In this document: positions 3,402-61,496 of the stretch, in pieces | How the letters are laid out: each line of letters starts with the position of its first letter | How positions within the stretch are numbered: the stretch's first letter is position 1 | DNA from: a virus | DNA: 64,000 nt | Direction: 5' to 3' (one strand) | IMG/VR virus record: IMGVR_UViG_3300043570_000998 | Coordinates: 1-64,000 of that record | Notes under the pieces: generated by a model | Seen by the model: the letters and a program-made list of their open reading frames with translations, nothing else | Databases searched by the model: none | What the model was told of the DNA's origin: nothing | Program-made: the position numbers and the translations under genes

Positions 3402-4691
3402 ATGGCAACAGTCAATAAAAACTTTAGAGTCAAGAATGGCTTAACTGTTGAAGGTAACGTAACCATTACAGGTACTAACGGAACCATCAATAGCTCAAAC
3501 ATTCTTACCGAAGCTACCGTAGCATATCCAAGCATTCCTAACGTGTTTGGAACAATTAGTGCTAACGGAACATCAGTCGTTGCAGATACCAGCACTGATA
3601 CACTTACACTCACACCAAGTACTGGAATTACAATTGAGGCTAATGCAACAAGCGATACCATTACAATTACAAACTCAGATCCTGGTTCAGCACAAAATAT
3701 CTTTAAAACAATTAGTGCAAATGGTACATCAATTGCTGCTGATTCTAATACTGATACTTTAACTATTACGCCAAGCACTGGTATTACAATTACTGGAGAT
3801 GCAGGTACTGATACAGTAACAATTACTAACTCTGGTGTAACAGGTCTTACTGGAACTGCAAATGAGGTTGAAGTTTCTGGGTCTACTGGTTCAGTAACAA
3901 TTGGTCTTCCTAATGACGTAACAATTGGTAACAACCTTACCGTTACAGGAAACTTAACAGTTAGTGGTACAACTACAACCCTTAATACAGATACCCTTGC
4001 TGTAGAAGACAACATCGTTGTTCTTAATAGCAACATTACTGGAACACCAGCTCTTGACGCTGGCATTGAAGTTGAGCGTGGAGATTACACCAATGCAAAG
4101 ATCTACTGGAATGAGACAGACAATGCCTGGTATGTTTCAACACCTGGAGATAGTGCAGGTGCTGCAACTAACGCTGCAATTGCAACTGGTGGAAGCACCA
4201 ATCTATTTAATACTATTTCAGATGGTTCAAATACAGCTACCCCAGATTCAGCAACGGATACTTTAACATTTGCTGCTGGAACTGGTCTAACAGTAGCGGT
4301 AAATGGTACAACAGATACAGTCACATACGGACTTGACGCAAGTGCAACTGCTTCAGTTTTGTCTGTAACACTTCCAAACTCTAAAATTGAGGACGGTACA
4401 GTTACAGCAGCTGGAACAAGTGTAAATATTGATACCTTTACACTAGCCACTTACAAGTCAGCTAAGTATGTTGTTCAAATGACAAACGCTGGTGGCGATG
4501 CACACCTTGTTGAAGTTCTTGTCACAGCAGTTACAACAAATGCATATGTTGTTGAATATGCAGAACTTATCACAAATGCCTCACTTGGTGATGTTACTGC
4601 AGACAGTGACGGAACAACCGTTACAGTTTCTGTCGGTAGCACAGCATCTGGAGTTGTTGTAAAACACTCAGTGACATACATCGAAGCCTAA
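3402..4691 (+). CDS. Tail fibre / tropism-determinant-like protein with internal repeats
   Basis: RBS AAGGAG; three N.F.TIS.......D...DTLT repeats; GNLTV.GTTTTLNT..L.VEDN and AGIEVERG motifs of phage fibres. Confidence 0.65.
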   Translation: MATVNKNFRVKNGLTVEGNVTITGTNGTINSSNILTEATVAYPSIPNVFGTISANGTSVVADTSTDTLTLTPSTGITIEANATSDTITITNSDPGSAQNIFKTISANGTSIAADSNTDTLTITPSTGITITGDAGTDTVTITNSGVTGLTGTANEVEVSGSTGSVTIGLPNDVTIGNNLTVTGNLTVSGTTTTLNTDTLAVEDNIVVLNSNITGTPALDAGIEVERGDYTNAKIYWNETDNAWYVSTPGDSAGAATNAAIATGGSTNLFNTISDGSNTATPDSATDTLTFAAGTGLTVAVNGTTDTVTYGLDASATASVLSVTLPNSKIEDGTVTAAGTSVNIDTFTLATYKSAKYVVQMTNAGGDAHLVEVLVTAVTTNAYVVEYAELITNASLGDVTADSDGTTVTVSVGSTASGVVVKHSVTYIEA

Positions 4692-5090
4692 TTAGTTAGT
4701 CGTCGGGTATCATTATCTGGTATAATTTACTAAGGTGATGATACTTGACTACTATTAATAAAGACTTTAGGATCAAAAATGGTCTGATAGTCGATGGTGC
4801 TAACGCTACTGTAAATGGTAGTAGCGTTCTTACTACCGCATCTTCTATAGATGCTCTTAACGATGTAACGATTACAACACCAAGCTCTGGGCAAGTTCTT
4901 AAATGGAACGGTACTGCCTGGATTAATGATACTGATGCTACTGGTGCTGGCGGAGGAGGAAATGTATTTGAAACCATTTCTGCAAACGGTACTTCAGTAG
5001 TTGCTGATTCTTCTACAGATACCCTCACAATTACTCCTGGTAGTGGAATGTCAATTGTTGGCAATGCAACATCAGACACAGTAACATTCT
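3541..5090 (+). repeat. Dispersed ~40-codon repeat, four copies across two genes
   Basis: Copies near 3541, 3697, 4201 and 4961 (NVFGTISANGTSVVADTSTDTLTLTP and variants). Confidence 0.75.
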
Positions 5091-6472
5091 CAGTTGATTA
5101 TGCTGAAAAAATTTATTACTTAGTTCGTAACAACACTGGCTCAACAATTCCCAAGGGAACACTAGTATCAGCTTCAGGTGCGGAACCAAGTGGTCGCATT
5201 GACGTAGCACCACATTCAACTACTGGAACACAAGACTCTGAACTTCGTGTAATGGGAATGGCAACAGCAAACATTTCTAATGGTGTGAATGGTGAAGTTA
5301 TTAGTTTTGGAACTCTTGTTGGAATAGACACAAGAGGAGATACTGCCAGTGCTATCGCTGTTGGTGACGAAACTTGGGCAGAGGGGGATATTCTTTATGC
5401 ACACCCCACCGTTGCAGGAAAACTAACTAATGTTCGTCCACAGCACGACCTTGCAGTTGCATTTATTACTGTTAGACACGCATCAACTGGACAGATTGCT
5501 GTACGTATTATTCCAGGAAATCACCACCTTGAGTGGTTACACGACGTAGCGATTGACGGTACGCCAGCAGACAACGAACTTTTAGCTTATAACTCTGCAT
5601 CTAGTCTTTGGATTAATCAAACAGCTGAAGAAGCAGGGGTAGCTAATCTTTCAGGTGCTACATTTACTGGCAATGTTGCTGGTACTAATATAAGCGTAAC
5701 TGGTAATGTTAATGCCACAACTGTTAATGCAACTACCCTGGTCGGAAACACAAACGCTTCTACAATAACAACAGGAACTATTCCATCTGGAATCCTTGGA
5801 AATTCAACGGTATATGTTGGAACAACAGCCGTAGCACTTAATAGAACTACTGCATCACAAACACTAACAGGCGTATCCATTGATGGTAATGCTGGAACAG
5901 TTACTAATGGTGTTTATACAACAACCACATCTTTGCCAAATGTTACCTCTGTAAATAGCACGACTATTCCCAATGCCGCAACTCTTTTAACTACATCAAA
6001 TATTGGTGGATCTGTTCAAGCGTATGACGCTGATCTCACTTCAATTGCTGGTCTTACAAATAGTGCAGGGTATTTATACAATGATGGAACTGGTACATTT
6101 ACATATAATAGTCTTGGAACAAATGTTGCAACATTCCTTGGAACGCCAAACTCTTTAAATTTACTTAATACCGTAACTGATGAAACAGGGTCAGGATTAT
6201 TGGTTTTTGCAACAAGTCCAGTTTTAACTACTCCAAATATTGGGGCAGCAGTTGGAACATCTCTAACTATAAGCGGAACAATTAACGCAAATACAATTAC
6301 TGTTGCACAACAAAAGAATGCAGCCGTTGTCTCTGGGTATAACAGTGCTTCTGGTTCATTTGCCCACGCAAGCAAAGTGATTATGTCTGCTAACGCTACA
6401 GCATCTGCAGCACCAACGCTAAGACCTGATGGAACATCTCTTGCTGCAGGAGATGTTTGGATTAGTTGGTAG
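4745..6472 (+). CDS. Tail fibre protein (TTG start)
   Basis: N-terminus paralogous to 3402..4691 (NK.FR.KNGL.V.G); L.DV.I..P...QVL.WNG..W.N and DETGSG.LVFATSP.L.TP fibre motifs. Confidence 0.7.
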   Translation: MTTINKDFRIKNGLIVDGANATVNGSSVLTTASSIDALNDVTITTPSSGQVLKWNGTAWINDTDATGAGGGGNVFETISANGTSVVADSSTDTLTITPGSGMSIVGNATSDTVTFSVDYAEKIYYLVRNNTGSTIPKGTLVSASGAEPSGRIDVAPHSTTGTQDSELRVMGMATANISNGVNGEVISFGTLVGIDTRGDTASAIAVGDETWAEGDILYAHPTVAGKLTNVRPQHDLAVAFITVRHASTGQIAVRIIPGNHHLEWLHDVAIDGTPADNELLAYNSASSLWINQTAEEAGVANLSGATFTGNVAGTNISVTGNVNATTVNATTLVGNTNASTITTGTIPSGILGNSTVYVGTTAVALNRTTASQTLTGVSIDGNAGTVTNGVYTTTTSLPNVTSVNSTTIPNAATLLTTSNIGGSVQAYDADLTSIAGLTNSAGYLYNDGTGTFTYNSLGTNVATFLGTPNSLNLLNTVTDETGSGLLVFATSPVLTTPNIGAAVGTSLTISGTINANTITVAQQKNAAVVSGYNSASGSFAHASKVIMSANATASAAPTLRPDGTSLAAGDVWISW

Positions 6473-18853: not shown

Positions 18854-19527
18854 TGAAAACAAAATTCAATGACACTCTATTTCTTAAAGAAATGAATAAT
18901 ATGATTCAATATTCTTTTGGATTTACCGAAGGCGTTAAGCGAGGAAGAAATCATATTCTTAATGCTGTTGGCAAGGATGCTATTGAATTAATTAAACAAT
19001 ATGTTGATTCATCTGCCAGAACAAATCCTGGACTTCTTCATCATATGTATGAATGGAATCAAACTGGAAGTCCAAATGCAAGATTATTTGATATTGATTA
19101 TACAATATCTGGAGTCGGACTGTCTATTAAAACAACATTTAGACAGTCAACATCCATAAAAAATGGCTCTACCGTTCCATTTTATGACAAGGCAAGAATT
19201 ATAGAAAACGGTATTCCTGTTACAATCCGACCTCGTAAAGCATCGGTACTTGCATTTGAAGATAATGGAGAACAAGTTTTTACTAAAGGTCCAATAGTAA
19301 TTGATAATCCTGGAGGAGTTGAATCTTTAGGCGGATTTGAAAAAACATTTGACTCATTCTTTAATAGCTATTTTTCACAAGCCTTTTTAAGAATTAGTGG
19401 TGTAATGGGTTATATTCAAAATCCTACAGTCTTTGCAAAAAATCTATCAGCAGGAAAACGTGGCGGTAGATCAGTAGGTATTTCAACAGGCTACACTTGG
19501 GTAGCAAACATAGGAGTTAAACGATAA
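18853..19527 (+). CDS. Neck/tail completion protein (putative)
   Basis: Synteny; E.G.PV.IRP.KA.VLAF motif. Confidence 0.5.
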   Translation: MKTKFNDTLFLKEMNNMIQYSFGFTEGVKRGRNHILNAVGKDAIELIKQYVDSSARTNPGLLHHMYEWNQTGSPNARLFDIDYTISGVGLSIKTTFRQSTSIKNGSTVPFYDKARIIENGIPVTIRPRKASVLAFEDNGEQVFTKGPIVIDNPGGVESLGGFEKTFDSFFNSYFSQAFLRISGVMGYIQNPTVFAKNLSAGKRGGRSVGISTGYTWVANIGVKR

Positions 19528-20111
19528 TGGCAATTTACTATCCCCCAATCTTTATAAATAAATACCTACAGGAAAAACTTGCAGGTAGAGGGTTTGGAGC
19601 AGTTCCAATGTTTCCAACATACCCCAGTGACTTTAGTGTTGCAGAAAGCTTTAGTCTCGATATTCTAACATCTGGCGGTACTTCAAGATACCAGTTCCAG
19701 GGACAAGCAGCGGTATTTGATAGAATGTTTAAAATGCGTAGAGGACCATTCCCCTACATCAAGTGTGAACAGTTACTATACTACTTTTATGCACTAACAG
19801 AAACAGCTGTAGTAAATCTTATTGAAATGACACAAGAGATACAAGACCTTCTTGATAGTGGAGATGATTCAGCAAAAGATCTAAATGCTTGGATTGCTTC
19901 AAAGGTAAGCGGCACAGTAACTGTTGATGGTAAAGTACATAAGAAAGTTACTTTTGATGGAACAGACTTCCTGCTTCCTTATTTTCATCAGATTAAAATA
20001 TACCAACTTGAAGAAACTCGTGACATTATAGATTTTGGTACTGCTCGTACATATGCAGGGAATAAAATAATTATTGACTATGACTGGCACAAATCAGATT
20101 CATTTGTATAA
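19527..20111 (+). CDS. Tail terminator (putative)
   Basis: Immediately upstream of tail tube. Confidence 0.45.
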   Translation: MAIYYPPIFINKYLQEKLAGRGFGAVPMFPTYPSDFSVAESFSLDILTSGGTSRYQFQGQAAVFDRMFKMRRGPFPYIKCEQLLYYFYALTETAVVNLIEMTQEIQDLLDSGDDSAKDLNAWIASKVSGTVTVDGKVHKKVTFDGTDFLLPYFHQIKIYQLEETRDIIDFGTARTYAGNKIIIDYDWHKSDSFV

Positions 20112-20179
20112 TAAGCCTGTATACTTATAAAGAGGAAACACCCACCCAAAATCTATAACAAGAAAGAGGTGAAATAATT

Positions 20180-20890
20180 ATGGCATATTCACGTGGTACA
20201 AGTGCTAACATCATCGTTGGTGCAGCAGCACTTTTCACATACGAAGATGGTCCAATCGGTCAGGACACAAGTGGTGGTATTACCAACACTCAAGCTGAAC
20301 TCGATCTTCCCAACTTCCAAACCAACATTTCGTACAAGGATACTCTCGCAAATGCAACAAACGAGGTTGACTATCGTAACGTTGGTTACACAATGAACGG
20401 TCTTGAAATTGTCTTCCAGCCTGACTTCGGTGAGGTACAGGTTGACCAGGTTCTTGACGTTGCAAAGCTTTACAAGCAGGGAATGCAGGTTAACCTTAAC
20501 ACAGCATTCGCTGAAGCAACACTTGATAACTTGCTTTTTGCAATCGCAGGACAGACAACTGACCTTTCAAGCACATACACCAGTGTTACATCCCAGAGTG
20601 CATTCGGAACACCAACTTACGACGGTGACCGAGTTCTCAATATGGGTGCAGGAAACATTGGTGAGTGTCCAGTAGAGCGTGGTCTCGTTGCTGTTGGTCC
20701 AGGAACAGGAGACTGTGCAGCTGGATCTTCAATCGAACGCATCTACATTGCATACCGTGCTCTTTCAATCGAAAGCGTTACAGTATCAGCAAAGCGTGAC
20801 GAAGCTACAATGTTTGAAGTATCATTCAGACTTCTTCCCAATGACAACGCGTCATACGGTAAGATTGTAGATCGTACACTCGCATCATAA
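20180..20890 (+). CDS. Major tail tube protein
   Basis: NIIVGAA, VGYT.NG, EV.VDQ and T.FAEATL.NL motifs; strong RBS; terminator follows. Confidence 0.85.
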   Translation: MAYSRGTSANIIVGAAALFTYEDGPIGQDTSGGITNTQAELDLPNFQTNISYKDTLANATNEVDYRNVGYTMNGLEIVFQPDFGEVQVDQVLDVAKLYKQGMQVNLNTAFAEATLDNLLFAIAGQTTDLSSTYTSVTSQSAFGTPTYDGDRVLNMGAGNIGECPVERGLVAVGPGTGDCAAGSSIERIYIAYRALSIESVTVSAKRDEATMFEVSFRLLPNDNASYGKIVDRTLAS

Positions 20891-20903
20891 TTTAATATAA
20901 TCA

Positions 20904-20942
20904 GGACTGCTCAGAGTTTCGGCTCTGGGCAGTTTTGTTTTT
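20904..20942 (+). terminator. Intrinsic terminator
   Basis: ACTGCTCAGAG-TTTCGG-CTCTGGGCAGT followed by T-run. Confidence 0.8.
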
Positions 20943-20956
20943 GGTACAATAGATGT

Positions 20957-21646
20957 ATGGCAACAGAAATTTATGAAACAGGAACTACTACGTTAGTAGA
21001 CGGAACAGAGATATATTTAACACCGCTAAAGATTAAATACCTTAGAGAATTTATGAAAGAGTTTGAGAATGTTAAACTTGCAAAAGATGATGCAGAAGCC
21101 GTGTCAGCATTAGCACAATGTGCCAGGGTATGTATGAAACAATTTTATCCATCTATAAAAACAATAGAAGAACTAGAAGATAGCCTTAATCTACCAGCTA
21201 TCTATAGAGTATTAGATATTGCAGCTGGAATTAAGATTGATGGTAATGATGAAGAAGAGCCAGTAAAAGATCAAGCAGTTGATAGCGGATCTAGCTGGGA
21301 CACCCTTGACCTAGCAACATTAGAAACAGAGGTGTTTCTTTTAGGAATATGGAAAGATTTTGAAGAGCTTGAATCATCAATATCTATGCCAGAACTAACA
21401 TCAATACTTAATGTAAAAAGAGACTTGGACTACCAGGAAAAAAAGTTTATGGCTGGAATCCAAGGGGTAGATCTTGACAAAGAAAGCGGTAGTCAAGACC
21501 TTTGGGAGCAAAAGAAAGCTAAGTTCTTTAGTGGTGGGGCAACAAGCGATGCAAATGACGTTGTAGCCTTACAAGGACCAAATGCGGCAAACGCTGGATT
21601 CGGAATAGGTATGGGACTAGGTTATGAAAAACTGGTCGAAAACTAA
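20957..21646 (+). CDS. Tail assembly chaperone, long (GT-like) form
   Basis: Between tube and tape measure; first ~95 aa paralogous to 21692..22009; TGGTACAAT 6 nt before ATG. Confidence 0.7.
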   Translation: MATEIYETGTTTLVDGTEIYLTPLKIKYLREFMKEFENVKLAKDDAEAVSALAQCARVCMKQFYPSIKTIEELEDSLNLPAIYRVLDIAAGIKIDGNDEEEPVKDQAVDSGSSWDTLDLATLETEVFLLGIWKDFEELESSISMPELTSILNVKRDLDYQEKKFMAGIQGVDLDKESGSQDLWEQKKAKFFSGGATSDANDVVALQGPNAANAGFGIGMGLGYEKLVEN

Positions 21647-21691
21647 ACTGCTTCTGTGATATAATTTAAGAAGCCTAACAAGGAGGAAATA

Positions 21692-22009
21692 ATGGCAACA
21701 ACAATTAATGAAGCTACACAGCTTACGCTTATCGACGGAACAGTTATTATGGTTCGTCCACTAAAGATCTCACTACTTCGTGACTTTATGAAGGAGTTTG
21801 AGGGAATTGCTAAGGTAGCAGAAGACAACGAAAAATCAATGAACATTCTTATGAAGTGTGTTCAAATTGCAATGAAGCAATACAGTCCAGAACTAGCAGC
21901 TGACGTAACTGCTCTTGAGGATAATATTGATCTACCAACCGTTTATAAGGTGGTAGAAGCAGCATCTGGAATTAACCTTTCCGATACTGTAGCTGGTCTT
22001 ATGGGCTAG
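21692..22009 (+). CDS. Tail assembly chaperone, short (G-like) form
   Basis: L.DGT....PLKI..LR.FMKEFE shared with upstream gene; own promoter 21657-21665; RBS AAGGAGG. Confidence 0.75.
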   Translation: MATTINEATQLTLIDGTVIMVRPLKISLLRDFMKEFEGIAKVAEDNEKSMNILMKCVQIAMKQYSPELAADVTALEDNIDLPTVYKVVEAASGINLSDTVAGLMG

Positions 22010-22034
22010 ACTCTAAAAAAGGAAGTGTTAATGA

Positions 22035-25000
22035 ATGGCTGAAGATGCAAATGCTAATATCCGCATAGATATTGACACTACCGCTGCTACTGCAGCACTT
22101 AAAACACTACAAAGTCAAATCGCAAGATTTCACACAGAGATGGCTCGTGGTGGAGCAGTAGCTGGTCAAAATGCTGCTAAACTACAACAAAACTTAATAA
22201 ACTCTATTAATGCTGGTGGTCAGTTCCAAGCAGGAATGACTAAAGTTCAGTCAACTACCGAAGCATTCACTACTGCCCTTGAGAAAAATAAACTTTCGAT
22301 GGGGCAGTATTTTAGATATGCTGGGGCATCTACAAAAACATTTGGAAGAATGTTTCGTGGTGAATTTGAAACAATTACAAAGGTAGCTACTGAAAGAGTT
22401 AAAGACCTTCAAACCCAATATATCTCAATGGGTCGTGATGCAAATGGAGCATTAAGATCAATCAAGATTAGACCCCTAACTCTTGATATGCAAAATCTTG
22501 CTACACAGTCAATGATTACTGCACAAAAACAGCAACTATATAATCAACTTCTTAAGCAAGGTTCTACGAACCTTCTAAACTTTGGTAAAAACACACAATG
22601 GGCTGGTCGTCAGCTTATGGTTGGTTTTACCCTTCCCCTTACAATGTTTGCATCAGTTGCTGCAAAATCATTTATGGACATTGAAAAACAAATAATTAGA
22701 ATTCGTCGTGTTTATGGAGACTTCTCTACAACCGTTAAAGAAACAGACGATATGATTGCGTCCATCAAATCTCTTGCAGGAGAATATACTAAGTATGGTG
22801 TTGCTGTAAAAGATACCATTGGTCTTGCTTCAGAAGCTGCCGCTGCTGGTAAGACAGGTCAAGAACTTCTTGCTCAAGTAGCACAGGCAACTCGCCTTGC
22901 AGTTCTTGGTAACGTAGAACAATCACAAGCTCTTGAAACAACAATGTCTGTTACCAATGCATTTGGTGTTGCCACTGAAGATCTTGCTAGTAAAATTGAC
23001 TTCCTTAACGCAGTTGAAAACCAATCCGTTACGTCTATCGAAGACTTAACGGTAGCTATTCCAAAGGCTGGACCTGTTGTTCAACAACTTGGTGGAGACG
23101 TAGAGGACTTGGCATTCTTCCTTACAGCAATGAAGGAAGGTGGGATTAACGCATCTGAAGGTGCTAACGCACTCAAATCTGGTCTTGCTGCACTTATTAA
23201 TCCAACTGGTAAAGCAAAAGAAATGCTTAAAGGTTTTGGTATTAATATTGAGAAGATTGTTAATTCAAATAAGGGAGATATTAAAGGACTTGTTATTGAT
23301 TTTGCGTCTGCACTTGATACCCTTGATCCACTTAGCCGTGCTCGTGCAATTGAGCAACTTTTTGGTAAGTTCCAGTTCTCACGTCTATCAACACTTTTTC
23401 AGAACGTAATTGGCGAGGGTACACAAGCAGCTCGTGTCCTTGAACTAACCAAAGCAACTACACAAGAGCTTGCAATCCTATCACAACGAGAACTTAAAAA
23501 GGTGGAAGACACAACTACCTACAAGTTTGAAAAAGCATTTGCTGACTTCCAGGCAGCAATAGCACCTGTTGGAGAACAATTCTTAAAAGCAGTTACACCA
23601 ATTATTGAGTTTGGTACAAAACTACTTAATCAGTTTAATGGTATGAGTGATGGTGCAAAGAGTTTTGCGGTTATCCTTACTACCGTAGTTGCAGGTATTG
23701 GTCCTGTGCTACTTATGACTGTTGGTCTTGTTGCTAACGGTGTAGCTAACCTTATTAAGATGTTCCAGGCACTTGGAACTATGTTTAAAAAGTCTGGGGC
23801 AGACACATCAATTCTTGGTATGCAAACAGAGTATATGACTCAACAACAGCTTGAAGCAGCAGCAGTAGCAGCATCACTTAATCAGTCACACAGCAGACTT
23901 ACTCAAACATTTAGCGTAGAGGCTGCAGCACTCAACTCTTTGACAGCAGCTTACCAAAAAGCAGTAACGGCACAACGTGGGTTTACAACACCTGGAGGTA
24001 GAGTCGCTGCAGGAAGTACAAAACCAAAGAAATTTGCTAATGGCGGAATGATTCGTGGTCCAGGATCAGGAACGTCGGACTCAATTCCTGCAATGCTTTC
24101 AAATGGCGAAGCTGTCATTCCTGCAAAACAAGCTAAAAAATATAGTGGTCTTATTAAAGAAATAATTTCTGGAAACGTTCCTGGATTTGCTGGCGGCGGT
24201 ATTCTTGGAGGAATGAAAAATATTCTTGGTGGAATGCTTGGTAGATCTAAAATTGCAACAAGGCTCCCCTCTGACGTACTTCTTAAAATGCTTTCATCTG
24301 GAAACACAAAGTATCAAAGTGGATTAGGAACAGGTGCTGGTGTAGATGCACAAAGTTTAGGCACTAATGTATATCAAAAAATGATTTTTGAAAGAAAACT
24401 TGCAGAAAATGCTGGTTTGGGTATTCCAATGGGTGCAGGTAATAATGCAAGACCAACCTATGGATCGGTTGCAACAGTAGGTCCAATTGCAAAATTCTTA
24501 AATAAACTTTTTGGTGGAAAAGTTGCTGGAAAGAATTTTAATGACATAACAAATCCACTTTCAGAACTATTAGATCAATATGGAGATGTTTCTCTTATTG
24601 CTAGAAATAGTGTAAAGAGTCAGTCAAGTATTTATCACGGAGATACTTTAATGGACAGTGTTAGGGGAGTTGGGTTTGGACAAAATGCTGGTCCAGTACC
24701 ATTCAATAACCTAGATCAAAATGCTGTAAATAAGTCTAGATTAAACAATATGTTTTCTGAATATGGTCAAACTAGAGTTGGAAATAGTATATCGGTTAAC
24801 AAAAAACCATCATATATAGAATCGCAAACTGCTGGTGGATTTGATGTTACTAAAGATATTGAAAAAATTCTTATCAAAAATCCAGAACTTCTTCCAGTAA
24901 TTCAACAAGCCCTAGCAGCAAGAGGTCTAAAAATACCAGTTAAGGTTGGTAAATATGCCAGGGGTGTAGTTAGTGTTCCTGGTCCCAAGGGTAAGGGTGA

Positions 25001-28000
25001 TGTTGTACCAGCAATGCTCTCTCCAGGAGAGGCAGTTATTCCTGCAAAGATGGCTAAGAAGTACGGACCTCTTATTAATGGAATGGTTGCTGGCAATATT
25101 CCTGGGTATCAAGAGGGAATTAACGCACCAGAATCGTGGAATCTTTCAGAACCTGGAGCAAGAAGAAGAGCCAGTCTTCAACAAAATTTTGATAATTTAT
25201 CTGCACAAGGATATAAGCCACAAATAAAACAAGTTATAGATTCCCTGAGTGGACTAAGAGTTTCTACAGAACAAGCAAGACAAATTTTTTCAAATATGAA
25301 CACAGCAGCAAAACTTGGACCAGAGCAACTTACTTCCTGGATTGCAGCATTAAAAGAAAATGCAACACTAACATCATCTGCTAGTGAACTAATTAAAACA
25401 CAAAAACTAAAAACTGGTGTGGCTAGTGGCGGTGCATCAACAAACTTTACACATATTGGTGCAGGAACAATTGTACCTGCACAACAAATACTAGATCAGT
25501 ATGGAACAGAAGGTCTTTCACAGGGGCAAGCAAACAACCTAAGAAATTTTGCACAACAAGGTAAAGATGTGCCTGTTAAGGGTATGCTTGGAATGGATAA
25601 TTTTAGTGCAGATGTAAATAGAAAACTTGCAACAAGTGGTGGAGCTACAATGAAAGAATTCTCAGACGCATTTGACACAGCAGGAATTCAGAAATGGAAC
25701 ACTAGTGTTATTTCTGGTGGCGGAAATATTCAAAAACTAGGTGCAGATATCTTAGCATTTGACAATAAGTTTAAAACACTAATTGCTGGTGTAAGTAAAT
25801 CAACCGTAATTTTTGATACAATGGGACAATCACAAACATATATGGCAAAAAATGCTAATGCTGCTGCAATATCTCTAGAACAGCTATATGCAACTGCAAG
25901 AGCATCTGCAACACAAGAATTGCGTCAGGCACTTGATACTGCACATACAACTCCAGGAGAGTTAAGATTTCAATCAAGTAGGCAGGGAAATCAAAAGTTC
26001 CCAGAAAGATTTAAAGGACTTTTAGCAAAGCAAGCAGAAACTGAATCAAAAAACTTTAGTTCACAGCTAGAACGTTTTGCTCAAACAGCATCTCCATCAA
26101 AACGTACAAAAAAAGTTGCAAAAGATACTGTTGATGGCTATGTTCAAGGTCTAAAAGAAGGAGAAAGCCAGATAAGAAAAGCTGGTAGAACAACAGGACG
26201 ACGTGTAACACAAGCTACTGGTGGACCAATTGTTGTTGATCAAACAGGAACTCAAGCAATGCCTACAGCAACCAGAAAGCCAAGACGTGCCACACGAGCA
26301 CAAGGATCTCCTGGACCAATAGTATACTCTCCAGATAATATGTTTGGTCCAGAGCCAGCTCCTAAGAAAAAGCCAGGACGTATTGCTAGTGCTGTTAAGG
26401 GTATGGGTGGTATGGGAGCAGGTATGGGTGTTGCTATGGCTGGTGGAGCATTAGCTATCGTCCCTGGTCTTGAGGGGCTAGGAACTGCTGCAGGTCTTGC
26501 TGGTAGTGCAATGATGATGATTCCTGGACCAATTGGAATTGTGGTTGCTGCCCTCATAGGATTTGTTGGTATTATAATGTCTGTAAAAGATGCGGTAGAC
26601 AAACAAAAACAAGCAGCTATTGATCTTGCAAACGCTCAAATAATGAGTATGGAAAAACTTAATACAATGGCTGAAGATTTTGGAACTGTTAGTGCAACAG
26701 AGGCAAGGGTAGCAGCAGAAGATGCCGCTGCCGCAGGAGTTTCTGAAAAACAAATGTCTGCTGGCACACAATATCTTACAGAAATGGTTAGTGGTCAACA
26801 GTTTGTTTCAGATGTAAAAACACAACAAGCTGCTGGAATATCTTCTGCAGAAATTGGAAAAAATGTTGCTGCAGATATGGCTACTGCTGTTGCACAAGGT
26901 GTTGTAACTCAGGAACAGGCTACAGAAATTATTGCTGCTCTTGGTTCTATGGTTGGAGACCGTGCAATTACTGCTGGGGCTTCTCAGCAATTTGGAACCT
27001 ATATGGAAGATCCTACAAAGGCTTCTGGTTTGATTGGTCAGGATAGGCTTACTCAACTACAAGGACAGTTTGGTGCTGCATCTCAGACAACAACCACTGC
27101 AGGTGGAAAAGGTGTTGTAACAACTATGGCAGATCCAAATGCTGCTTTAGGAGCAGTCTCTGCAACAATGAGTGCTTACGGTCAAACTGTTGGCGGTGTT
27201 GATGCAATTAATGCACAGTATGATGCTAAAGTAGCAGAGGCAACAACTCTAAAAGAAATTAATGCACTAGAGGCACAAAGGACTATAGATGTTAATGCTC
27301 AAAGAGATCTTGCAGCAGCAACATATGCTGAACTTGAAAAACAAAAAACTGCAATTGGTGCTGTAAAGTTTAATGAAGCATTCTTAAAGTCATTCGACAA
27401 AGATAGTGAAGCATACAAAACAGCAGAAAAGATTAATGCCCTTGAGGATAGTGAGTTTAAAACACAATTCCAAGCAGATTTTGCTGGTGGAAATATGAGC
27501 CAGGCAACTGCAGAAGCACTTGTTTTGCGTGGTAATAAAGGCGTTACAGCACATTATAAGATTAAAGCAAATGTTTCAATTAGCAAACAAGATGCTGCAA
27601 TGCTAAACAGACTAGAAGAACAGTATGGTACTGGTGTTACTGGTGGTACTACGCCGCCAAAAAAGAAAAAGAAAAAAGAACCTGTTACTACTACTGGTGA
27701 TAGTGGATCAGGAGCACCACCAGAAGATAAAAAACTTGCTAAATATAATAAAAAACTTGACAAACAACAAAAAGCACTTAGTGTCATTAATCTAGAAGAA
27801 GATGCAATTAACAAAAAATACCAAGACCGTGCAAAAGCTCTTGAGGATATTGCAAAGCTTAATGAAAGAATTGCACAGGGACAAAAAGATCAGCTTGCGG
27901 TTGCAAATGCTTTGGCTTCTGGAGATATTGCTGCTGCAGCAAGTGCTGTGCAGTCTGCAAGAGAATCTTCAGCACAACAATCTGCACAAGCACAAAAAGA

Positions 28001-28451
28001 AGGACTTGACAAAGCAAAACAAAATGAATTAGATGCAGTTTCATTTGGTGGAATGACAAGAAAATCGCTAGAAGCTTCTATGGCAGCTTTACAAATGGCA
28101 ATAGCTAGAAGAGAATACAAGTTAGCATCTAGCGGAGGTATGATGAGGGGATACTCTGTTGGTGGTAAGGTTATGTCATACTTTGCTGCTGGTGGAAAGC
28201 CACGAGGAAGTGATACAATCCCTGCTATGCTTACTCCTGGAGAGTTTGTTGTTAAACGACCTGCCGTGCAAAATTTTGGGGTAAAGAACCTACAAGCAAT
28301 CAATAGTGGTAAATCTCCTAACGCTTCAGTGTATAATTATAGTGTGACCGTTAATGCTGGAAGTAATGCAAATGCAGATCAAATTGCAAGCACCGTTATG
28401 TCTAAGATTAAAAAGGTAGAAGGATATAGGATTAGGGGAAATAGTCAATAA
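22035..28451 (+). CDS. Tape measure protein with inserted domains
   Basis: 2138 aa; TP901-type core (ENQSVTSIEDL..AIPKAGP, ASEGANALKSGL); hydrophobic segments; three D.(I/V)PAML(S/T).GE.V motifs. Confidence 0.92.
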   Translation: MAEDANANIRIDIDTTAATAALKTLQSQIARFHTEMARGGAVAGQNAAKLQQNLINSINAGGQFQAGMTKVQSTTEAFTTALEKNKLSMGQYFRYAGASTKTFGRMFRGEFETITKVATERVKDLQTQYISMGRDANGALRSIKIRPLTLDMQNLATQSMITAQKQQLYNQLLKQGSTNLLNFGKNTQWAGRQLMVGFTLPLTMFASVAAKSFMDIEKQIIRIRRVYGDFSTTVKETDDMIASIKSLAGEYTKYGVAVKDTIGLASEAAAAGKTGQELLAQVAQATRLAVLGNVEQSQALETTMSVTNAFGVATEDLASKIDFLNAVENQSVTSIEDLTVAIPKAGPVVQQLGGDVEDLAFFLTAMKEGGINASEGANALKSGLAALINPTGKAKEMLKGFGINIEKIVNSNKGDIKGLVIDFASALDTLDPLSRARAIEQLFGKFQFSRLSTLFQNVIGEGTQAARVLELTKATTQELAILSQRELKKVEDTTTYKFEKAFADFQAAIAPVGEQFLKAVTPIIEFGTKLLNQFNGMSDGAKSFAVILTTVVAGIGPVLLMTVGLVANGVANLIKMFQALGTMFKKSGADTSILGMQTEYMTQQQLEAAAVAASLNQSHSRLTQTFSVEAAALNSLTAAYQKAVTAQRGFTTPGGRVAAGSTKPKKFANGGMIRGPGSGTSDSIPAMLSNGEAVIPAKQAKKYSGLIKEIISGNVPGFAGGGILGGMKNILGGMLGRSKIATRLPSDVLLKMLSSGNTKYQSGLGTGAGVDAQSLGTNVYQKMIFERKLAENAGLGIPMGAGNNARPTYGSVATVGPIAKFLNKLFGGKVAGKNFNDITNPLSELLDQYGDVSLIARNSVKSQSSIYHGDTLMDSVRGVGFGQNAGPVPFNNLDQNAVNKSRLNNMFSEYGQTRVGNSISVNKKPSYIESQTAGGFDVTKDIEKILIKNPELLPVIQQALAARGLKIPVKVGKYARGVVSVPGPKGKGDVVPAMLSPGEAVIPAKMAKKYGPLINGMVAGNIPGYQEGINAPESWNLSEPGARRRASLQQNFDNLSAQGYKPQIKQVIDSLSGLRVSTEQARQIFSNMNTAAKLGPEQLTSWIAALKENATLTSSASELIKTQKLKTGVASGGASTNFTHIGAGTIVPAQQILDQYGTEGLSQGQANNLRNFAQQGKDVPVKGMLGMDNFSADVNRKLATSGGATMKEFSDAFDTAGIQKWNTSVISGGGNIQKLGADILAFDNKFKTLIAGVSKSTVIFDTMGQSQTYMAKNANAAAISLEQLYATARASATQELRQALDTAHTTPGELRFQSSRQGNQKFPERFKGLLAKQAETESKNFSSQLERFAQTASPSKRTKKVAKDTVDGYVQGLKEGESQIRKAGRTTGRRVTQATGGPIVVDQTGTQAMPTATRKPRRATRAQGSPGPIVYSPDNMFGPEPAPKKKPGRIASAVKGMGGMGAGMGVAMAGGALAIVPGLEGLGTAAGLAGSAMMMIPGPIGIVVAALIGFVGIIMSVKDAVDKQKQAAIDLANAQIMSMEKLNTMAEDFGTVSATEARVAAEDAAAAGVSEKQMSAGTQYLTEMVSGQQFVSDVKTQQAAGISSAEIGKNVAADMATAVAQGVVTQEQATEIIAALGSMVGDRAITAGASQQFGTYMEDPTKASGLIGQDRLTQLQGQFGAASQTTTTAGGKGVVTTMADPNAALGAVSATMSAYGQTVGGVDAINAQYDAKVAEATTLKEINALEAQRTIDVNAQRDLAAATYAELEKQKTAIGAVKFNEAFLKSFDKDSEAYKTAEKINALEDSEFKTQFQADFAGGNMSQATAEALVLRGNKGVTAHYKIKANVSISKQDAAMLNRLEEQYGTGVTGGTTPPKKKKKKEPVTTTGDSGSGAPPEDKKLAKYNKKLDKQQKALSVINLEEDAINKKYQDRAKALEDIAKLNERIAQGQKDQLAVANALASGDIAAAASAVQSARESSAQQSAQAQKEGLDKAKQNELDAVSFGGMTRKSLEASMAALQMAIARREYKLASSGGMMRGYSVGGKVMSYFAAGGKPRGSDTIPAMLTPGEFVVKRPAVQNFGVKNLQAINSGKSPNASVYNYSVTVNAGSNANADQIASTVMSKIKKVEGYRIRGNSQ

Positions 28452-61225: not shown

Positions 61226-61496
61226 AAATTGGAAAAATGATGCACGATGCGAAGGTTATGATACCAACTTATTCTTTGACAAATATGAAGAAGATCTTAA
61301 TCTTAGAGTAGGGATAGATAATCTTTGTTCGGGCTGTCCTGTTGCAAGATTATGTTTTGCTACTGGAGTCTCTCAAAAAGGTTGGGGAGTCTGGGGCGGA
61401 GTCTATCTTGAAAATGGAAAGATCTCACGAGAATTTAATAGGCATAGGTCAAAAGCTGATTGGGCTGAGACTTGGAAAAATCTAACAAACGATTAG
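61212..61496 (+). CDS. whiB: WhiB-family Fe-S transcription factor
   Basis: W...A.C.....LFF, C..CPV...C, GVWGG. Confidence 0.88.
   Translation: MMQSENWKNDARCEGYDTNLFFDKYEEDLNLRVGIDNLCSGCPVARLCFATGVSQKGWGVWGGVYLENGKISREFNRHRSKADWAETWKNLTND

Follow-up and report, generated by a model that had tools for sequence, protein, structure and literature searches.

In phage lambda, the short tail assembly chaperone gpG and its longer form gpGT are produced from one locus through a -1 ribosomal frameshift. The relevant passage of PMC5009743, which cites Levin 1993 and Xu, Hendrix & Duda 2004, 2013 and 2014 for the chaperone frameshift, describes the resulting G to G-T ratio of roughly 30:1 as crucial and the frameshift itself as widely conserved in long-tailed phages. 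Some T4-like phages take another route and, according to the part of PMC10885494 that cites Vladimirov, Gautam & Davidson 2022 (Virology 566:9), dispense with the frameshift by carrying a short gene alongside a longer, fused one. The locus analyzed here lies in the IMG/VR virus record IMGVR_UViG_3300043570_000998 (89,842 bases, estimated to be 83% complete); positions 1-64,000 of that record form the window, meaning the whole 64,000-nucleotide stretch under study. Judging from the sequence, a long-tailed siphovirus probably has at this locus a separate gene for each of its two tail assembly chaperones, without recoding. The genes in question are an open reading frame (ORF) of 229 amino acids, in which a G-type part is fused in frame to a T-type part, and an ORF of 105 amino acids, called G2, which holds a G-type part only. 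Overall, this two-gene reading is supported by the analysis.

Compared with lambda, the locus has the same position between the tube and tape measure genes, and the same pairing of a short product with a long product that carries the T domain. The lambda feature of a long form made by -1 frameshifting at a heptamer near the 3' end of G is absent from the window. Instead, an ordinary ORF encodes the long form, a second and diverged gene (44% identity) encodes the short one, and each gene has its own promoter and a different type of start. The overlapping -1 layout of lambda is present in the window's relatives, namely Streptomyces phages and the metagenomic loci L061-L065.

The T4-like arrangement, as its source outlines it, also combines a short gene with a long gene that fuses the short part to a C-terminal part, and the same combination without a frameshift is found in the window. 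Several distinctions remain. The T4-like phages are myoviruses of Proteobacteria, whereas the window represents a siphovirus lineage akin to Stanwilliamsviridae; the window's sister lineages have kept the frameshift, which allows the switch to be located on a tree; and in the window the long gene comes first, with contrasting conserved start signals and codon adaptation. Close homology to the T4-like chaperone genes is unlikely, because all 130 matches in the phage collection are Streptomyces or Rhodococcus phages. The locus is an independent and well-supported case of a solution known in T4-like phages and not a new principle, and its new details are the conserved contrast between leaderless and Shine-Dalgarno starts and the extreme contrast in codon usage. 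Full-text literature searches turned up no siphovirus or actinophage reported to have two chaperone genes or a duplicated one in this arrangement.

Streptomyces phages of the Stanwilliamsviridae (Targaryen, MZ958750; Coruscant, MT711976; Kenrey, OQ995430; Moab, MT114162) share with the window homologous G and T sequences, about 44% over the matched parts, and the gene order tube, chaperones, tape measure. Their single G has a promoter and a Shine-Dalgarno sequence, as G2 does. Unlike the window, they have only one G gene, with T in the -1 frame, annotated as a join in Kenrey and as two genes in Targaryen, Coruscant and Moab. A further point of comparison comes from the lactococcal phage TP901-1, where, according to the relevant part of PMC4493119, a mutant with gpG and gpT permanently fused and no free gpG makes particles that are non-infective. 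This result fits a need for a separate G gene, and a second G would relieve that constraint. Unlike the window, the TP901-1 fusion is an engineered mutant and not a natural layout, and it has no second G gene beside it.

Architecture and spread of the two genes

The fusion gene (20957..21646, plus strand) is defined by its ORF, BLASTP, phrog matches and the layout in relatives. It comprises a G domain (amino acids 1-95, about 20957-21241), a linker (about 21242-21292) and a T domain (about 21293-21643), with the stop codon directly after. The putative short chaperone gene G2 (21692..22009, plus strand), defined by its ORF, BLASTP, a phrog match and its tree position, lies downstream in the same reading frame. 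A preliminary description of this DNA, made from its letters alone, had noticed that the two ORFs have their first ~95 residues in common and that the longer one runs on in frame to a distinct C-terminal domain. Both observations are confirmed. BLASTP aligns the two proteins with 42 of 96 residues identical (44%; 71% positives; E 9e-28), and the long ORF continues in frame from its G part to a C-terminal domain of roughly 117 amino acids with homologues of its own. Both proteins match phrog_10504 (E 2.2e-21 for the long one, 4.9e-17 for the short one), and the long protein also matches phrog_10474 at residues 131-177 (E 5.7e-15); these two families, corresponding to the G part and the T part, are both catalogued as function unknown. 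The pair therefore consists of a short and a long product with a common G part and an extra T in the long one, the G parts being paralogous and not identical.

Purifying selection acts on both genes. Pairwise dN/dS (NG86, 13 pairs) is low in all three parts, at 0.06-0.19 for the fusion G domain, 0.03-0.20 for the T domain and 0.02-0.23 for G2, which indicates that both window genes are functional. Two representative fusion proteins, P0124 (295 amino acids) and P0130 (286 amino acids), carry unrelated C-terminal sequence past match residue ~178 or 161; they are perhaps chimeric contigs, or perhaps true variants in which the end of the T domain has been replaced.

The layout recurs widely. A scan of IMG/VR with the long protein yields 63 distinct loci, whose ORFs were sorted by script; as the query is the fused protein, the proportions of layouts lean towards fusions. 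An in-frame G-T fusion is present in 58 of the 63, and this recurrence in independent loci shows that the layout is not an assembly accident. A separate G followed by the tape measure gene accompanies the fusion in 56 of these 58, the other two (L015 and L060) ending at a contig edge, and G2 is followed by the tape measure gene in every related locus long enough to show both. The five remaining loci, L061-L065, have one G and a T in the -1 frame. Surveyed in this way, the window's clade has two genes and its relatives frameshift. A search of 1.84 billion representatives with a profile built from 31 fusion proteins retrieves 701 proteins at E <=0.001. The best 150 of these comprise 3 full-length fusions, 7 proteins with parts of both domains, 49 with G only and 91 with T only, so that the split layout is the more diverse state and the fusion marks one clade. 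The G family is abundant in metagenomes, with 3628 protein clusters at E <=0.001. One fusion locus, L039, has a 1.2-kb insert (4682-5902) between the fusion gene and G2, with the G2 promoter and Shine-Dalgarno sequence kept after it; the insert holds a 204-amino-acid ORF resembling 2OG-Fe(II) oxygenases (23.9 bits, under the cut-off of 27) and a 154-amino-acid DUF6817 ORF (62.5 bits).

In relatives among the phage records, the same two domains are encoded in a split form. A tblastn search of the long protein against 50,697 phage records matches 130 of them (127 Streptomyces, 3 Rhodococcus), and in every listed row the match is split in two pieces over adjacent annotated ORFs; none of the 130 carries at least 80% of the query in one piece. 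Phage records matching G2 have a single G copy in 124 of 124 cases. In the Streptomyces phages and in L061-L065, T is read in the -1 frame from an ORF that shares 43-79 nt with the end of G, and the homology of this ORF to the window T domain (a motif around SW..LDL) starts upstream of any start codon. Heptamers of the form X_XXY_YYZ occur in six of the eight single-G loci examined, in frame and within the overlap: C_CCA_AAA in L061, G_GGA_AAC in L062, C_CCA_AAC in L064 and L065, and C_CCA_AAT in Kenrey and Moab. Targaryen and Coruscant have the non-canonical GAC CCG GAA at the homologous place. In both phages (L001 3286-3345 and L002 2286-2345, respectively), the T ORF is already open, in the -1 frame, over the 58 nt leading up to the G stop and two separate chaperone genes are listed, and a non-canonical, unannotated shift is likely. 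We take the Stanwilliamsviridae Streptomyces phages to be clusters BE and BK, with Targaryen and Coruscant presumably in cluster BE. Among the single-G loci, L061 has a 198-amino-acid cysteine-rich ORF (4700-5296) between the T ORF and the tape measure gene, at the exact place of G2; an HNH-type endonuclease motif was assigned to it by eye.

These relatives also bear on what the proteins do. The T domain of the window matches the second 'tail assembly chaperone' ORF of the relatives. In Targaryen, Coruscant and Moab, both homologous ORFs are annotated as tail assembly chaperones and stand between the major tail protein and the tape measure genes; the Kenrey record gives the long form as a coding sequence (CDS) joined from two pieces, which amounts to a programmed frameshift. 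The window genes occupy the same position between the tube and tape measure genes, and the order is the same in related loci. By these classic criteria, position together with an overlapping -1 ORF in relatives, assignment of the window family to the G/G-T tail chaperones is supported, in agreement with the preliminary description, which had called the proteins tail chaperones.

No sign of recoding is found in G2 of the window: the longest ORF in another frame that overlaps its end has 30 amino acids, and the gene contains no in-frame X_XXY_YYZ heptamer. The second result bears out the earlier remark that no slippery heptamer stands at the end of the short gene. The comparison extends to 32 representatives, namely the window and 31 loci chosen from the IMG/VR set as non-identical. 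In-frame heptamers are absent from 26 of their 32 G2 genes and have no conserved place in the rest; they are absent from 10 of the 32 fusion genes, and none is conserved in the fusion gene. A conserved slippery site was thus sought in either gene across the 32 representatives and not found.

Start signals, codon usage and the predicted ratio

The two genes begin in different ways. The fusion gene is preceded by an extended -10 promoter element of the leaderless type, TGGTACAAT (20942..20950, plus strand), which ends 6 nt before the ATG, and the window has no Shine-Dalgarno sequence before this gene. G2 has its own extended -10 element, TGATATAAT (21657..21665, plus strand), and the Shine-Dalgarno sequence AAGGAGG (21680..21686, plus strand) 5 nt before its ATG. 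The preliminary description had reported a leaderless-type promoter for the fusion and a separate promoter with an AAGGAGG ribosome binding site for G; these signals are present as described and prove to be conserved. An extended -10 element ending 5-10 nt before the ATG precedes the fusion gene in 30 of the 32 representatives, and a Shine-Dalgarno-like motif in none of the 32. For G2, an extended -10 element lies 15-45 nt before the start in all 32, and a Shine-Dalgarno-like motif lies 3-12 nt upstream in 31; in L040, the sole exception, GGAGG precedes a further ATG that lies four codons downstream. In the single-G locus L062, an extended -10 element (TGATATAAT) is also found directly past the T stop and before the tape measure start (about 4693-4720), unlike the window, which has no such element between G2 and the tape measure gene.

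Upstream of the fusion promoter, a hairpin with a T run resembling an intrinsic terminator (20902..20937, plus strand) lies 3' of the tube gene. A GC-rich hairpin with a T run stands at the equivalent place in the related loci that were printed out. Since this is the only terminator-like site within 19500-22600, transcripts from the fusion promoter should also carry G2. The promoter motif itself is enriched in the window, where TGNTAYAAT occurs at 17 sites, all on the plus strand, compared with an expectation of 8.56 for the two strands combined; a count of 17 was not reached in any of 100 shuffles. The sites span 204 to 56010 (for example 204, 278, 775, 2182, 2922, 17002, 20942, 21657, 34508, 37107 and 56002). 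At six of the 17, an ATG follows after 6-9 nt, as in the leaderless type, and in five of these cases the ORF that begins there encodes 123-229 amino acids; other sites are followed by a leader and a strong Shine-Dalgarno sequence. Because six sites have an ATG so close, leaderless starts appear to be a regular device of the source phage.

Codon usage separates the two genes further. When codon adaptation is scored against tail-tube genes, G2 comes out above the fusion gene in all 32 loci, with means of 0.611 for G2, 0.477 for the fusion and 0.679 for the tube genes. In a ranking of the window's 60 ORFs, for which the tube gene of the window was excluded from the reference set, that gene comes first (0.734), G2 second (0.708) and the fusion gene 52nd (0.471), around a median of 0.53. 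As a control, the G part exceeds the T part in six of seven frameshift-type relatives, the exception being L064. In addition, dS of G2 is lower than dS of the fusion G domain in 12 of 13 pairs. Codon usage is the strongest indirect evidence on product levels and fits an abundant G2 and a scarce G-T; given ranks of 2nd and 52nd among 60, G very probably far exceeds G-T.

These features suggest a mechanism in which the 229-amino-acid protein would be a permanent in-frame G-T fusion, the counterpart of the rare frameshift product gpGT, and G2 would be the abundant short chaperone gpG. Chaperone activity is predicted for both proteins: the G part of the fusion would hold the tape measure protein, and its T part would recruit the tail tube protein. 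The G to G-T ratio would be set here by gene expression, where other phages set it by the efficiency of the -1 slip. G-T would be translated from a leaderless mRNA started just past the tail-tube terminator, with no Shine-Dalgarno sequence and with poorly adapted codons. G2 would be made from its own strong promoter and a consensus Shine-Dalgarno sequence, and also from transcripts of the G-T promoter, with codon usage as adapted as that of the tail tube gene.

Rival readings and the origin of the second copy

Several observations weigh against the reading of the locus as two chaperone genes balanced by expression, and some of them concern the ratio itself. Leaderless mRNAs are common in actinobacteria and can be well translated there, so that a missing Shine-Dalgarno sequence alone is no proof of low G-T output. 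The leaderless start of the G-T mRNA is a prediction from sequence, as are the actual G to G-T protein ratio and the part that initiation strength would play in setting it. Metatranscriptomes were compared as Logan contigs only, at 85% likeness, where absent cover does not count as a finding. In two freshwater RNA runs from different studies (X23 and X24), contigs of relatives cover the tube gene and stop at about 20878-20897, and contigs also cover part of G2 (21753-22012), with none on the fusion gene; as an expression contrast this pattern is a weak hint, G2 being more conserved and easier to match. In a third RNA run (X22), a 5887-base contig extends over the whole stretch and may be DNA carried in the library.

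Other points of this kind come from curated collections. Neither window protein has a Phage_TAC match above the gathering score in Pfam, which returns chance-level matches only (for example an Arc-like domain, E 0.04), and when 36 diverse members of the G family are compared with Pfam, a single one touches PF23857 (Phage_TAC_19, E 0.0088). NCBIfam gives no match, and profile searches of the PDB find no significant structure (best E 0.27 and 0.074); the matches there, to prion proteins (E 0.27-1.4) and to four unrelated chains (E 0.07-0.66), were taken as chance. The lack of a significant match to curated chaperone families or solved structures could mean that the genes are not tail chaperones and are, for example, small regulators or structural proteins placed there by chance, and the JGI label 'inhibitor of KinA sporulation pathway (predicted exonuclease)' on many G2 homologues (P0012, P0019, P0024 and others) would favor such a view. 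It is nonetheless very improbable, as the position between tube and tape measure genes is conserved, relatives show the hallmark overlapping -1 ORF with slippery heptamers, and the GenBank annotation of the Streptomyces homologues agrees, joined CDS included. The JGI name was rejected on size (105 amino acids) and context and is probably a propagated misannotation, and the nearest named Atlas clusters (PF23857, PF11836 and PF09550) are chaperone families, though at 0.83-0.84 they are a lead only. Just as little probability attaches to recoding that is still in use, by which a frameshift or a stop-related event in either gene would yield a further product. The fusion gene of the window does contain an in-frame A_AAA_AAG (21439-21445, inside the T domain, codons E161-K162-K163), which also counts against the reading without recoding, and since shifting in the related BE-cluster Streptomyces phages seems to occur where no canonical heptamer exists, the absence of a heptamer does not equal the absence of a shift. 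As a conserved frameshift site, however, codon 161 was rejected, because AAAAAAG is found there in only 4 of the 32 representatives; a shift at this codon would merely truncate the T domain, and the many fusion and G2 genes that lack any heptamer, together with the lack of a longer ORF in another frame over the end of G2, speak against recoding as well.

More weight belongs to two proposals that accept both genes as chaperones, and both draw on the phylogeny of the G domain. In a tree built from 71 G domains, a branch with support 98/90 sets the 32 G domains of the fusions apart, on a long stem (0.54 changes per column); G2 clusters with the single G genes of L062 and L061 (98/77), and within this with that of L062 (98/87), the fusion G domain standing outside that group; the Streptomyces singles and L064 make up another clade (100/99). 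One proposal starts from the fact that the two G domains are only 44% identical, a further point against the expression model, as interchangeability may have been lost. On this account the paralogues are specialized: the G part of the fusion and G2 differ in their job, for instance by using different tape-measure sites or a fixed assembly order, and binding specificity sets the stoichiometry, with expression secondary. The long stem of the fusion clade, the placement of G2 near frameshift-type single G genes, the purifying selection on both copies after divergence, and four columns that are conserved within each paralogue with different residues (such as PLKI-KY-L versus PLKI-SL-L) agree with it. 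It is still unlikely, since 16 core columns are conserved and identical in both paralogues, so that the fold and probably the partner are kept, and selection on level is evident in any case from how strongly expression signals and codon adaptation differ. Similarly, it is doubtful that the fusion G recognizes a site of its own on the tape measure protein or on a G2 oligomer, with the number of G-T per tail set by binding specificity and not by the production ratio. If it did, this would explain how the lineage could drop a frameshift conserved across other long-tailed phages, and the lineage would serve as a natural experiment on why other phages retain the frameshift. The other proposal concerns origin and leaves function as in the expression model: a second G-type gene may have been acquired by recombination with a diverged related phage, one parent contributing G-T and the other G. 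The grouping of G2, but not of the fusion G domain, with the single G of L062 favors this, as do the motifs, KY being common to the fusion G and the single G of L061 and SL to G2 and the single G of L062. In a quick tree of T domains, the fusions group with metagenomic singles (97), the nearest being L061 (93), and an AU test does not reject a tree in which the fusion G domains are forced together with L061 (p 0.341). The site also takes up DNA, to judge from the HNH-type gene between T and the tape measure gene in L061 and from the insert between the chaperone genes in L039. Against acquisition, a tree with both paralogues forced into one clade is not rejected either (p 0.285), the long fusion-G stem could reflect fast change after duplication, and about 100 columns are too few to settle the origin. 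Acquisition is thus a possibility to be kept in mind, if a somewhat doubtful one, and duplication in place is plausible. The preliminary description had spoken of gene duplication in place of a programmed frameshift; the two paralogous genes without a frameshift stand, whereas a choice of in-place duplication over acquisition does not follow from the two AU tests.

Neighboring genes, host and meaning

The two genes belong to a row of late genes on the plus strand, with the tube gene ahead of them and the tape measure gene behind. The major tail (tube) protein gene (20180..20890, 236 amino acids) is recognized by homology of its product to the protein annotated as major tail protein in Streptomyces phage Targaryen, with 41% identity over 231 amino acids (E 3e-50); its product matches phrog_2175 and, weakly, also phrog_885 'major tail protein'. 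The tape measure gene (22035..28451, 2138 amino acids) starts 25 nt past the stop of the 105-amino-acid gene and has a short nucleotide match to annotated tape measure genes in 16 Streptomyces phage records. The window stretch is also present in lake-water runs from 21 studies. A WhiB-family gene lies at 61230-61403 (39.8 bits, exceeding the Pfam cut-off); such genes are a frequent mark among phages of actinobacteria. Given this gene and the kinship with Streptomyces phages, the source, an uncultured lake phage, probably has an actinobacterial host.

The G/G-T frameshift is among the most widely conserved recoding events, and the usual rationale for it is that it fixes the ratio of the two chaperones. 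Here, a large natural lineage has swapped the frameshift for two genes while its closest relatives keep it, and the conserved contrast in starts and in codon usage points to how the ratio is kept. For annotators, this means that there is no frameshift to seek in these phages and that the second gene is not an inconsequential duplicate. Together, the frameshift-type Streptomyces phages and the two-gene lake phages offer a paired system for asking what purpose the frameshift serves.

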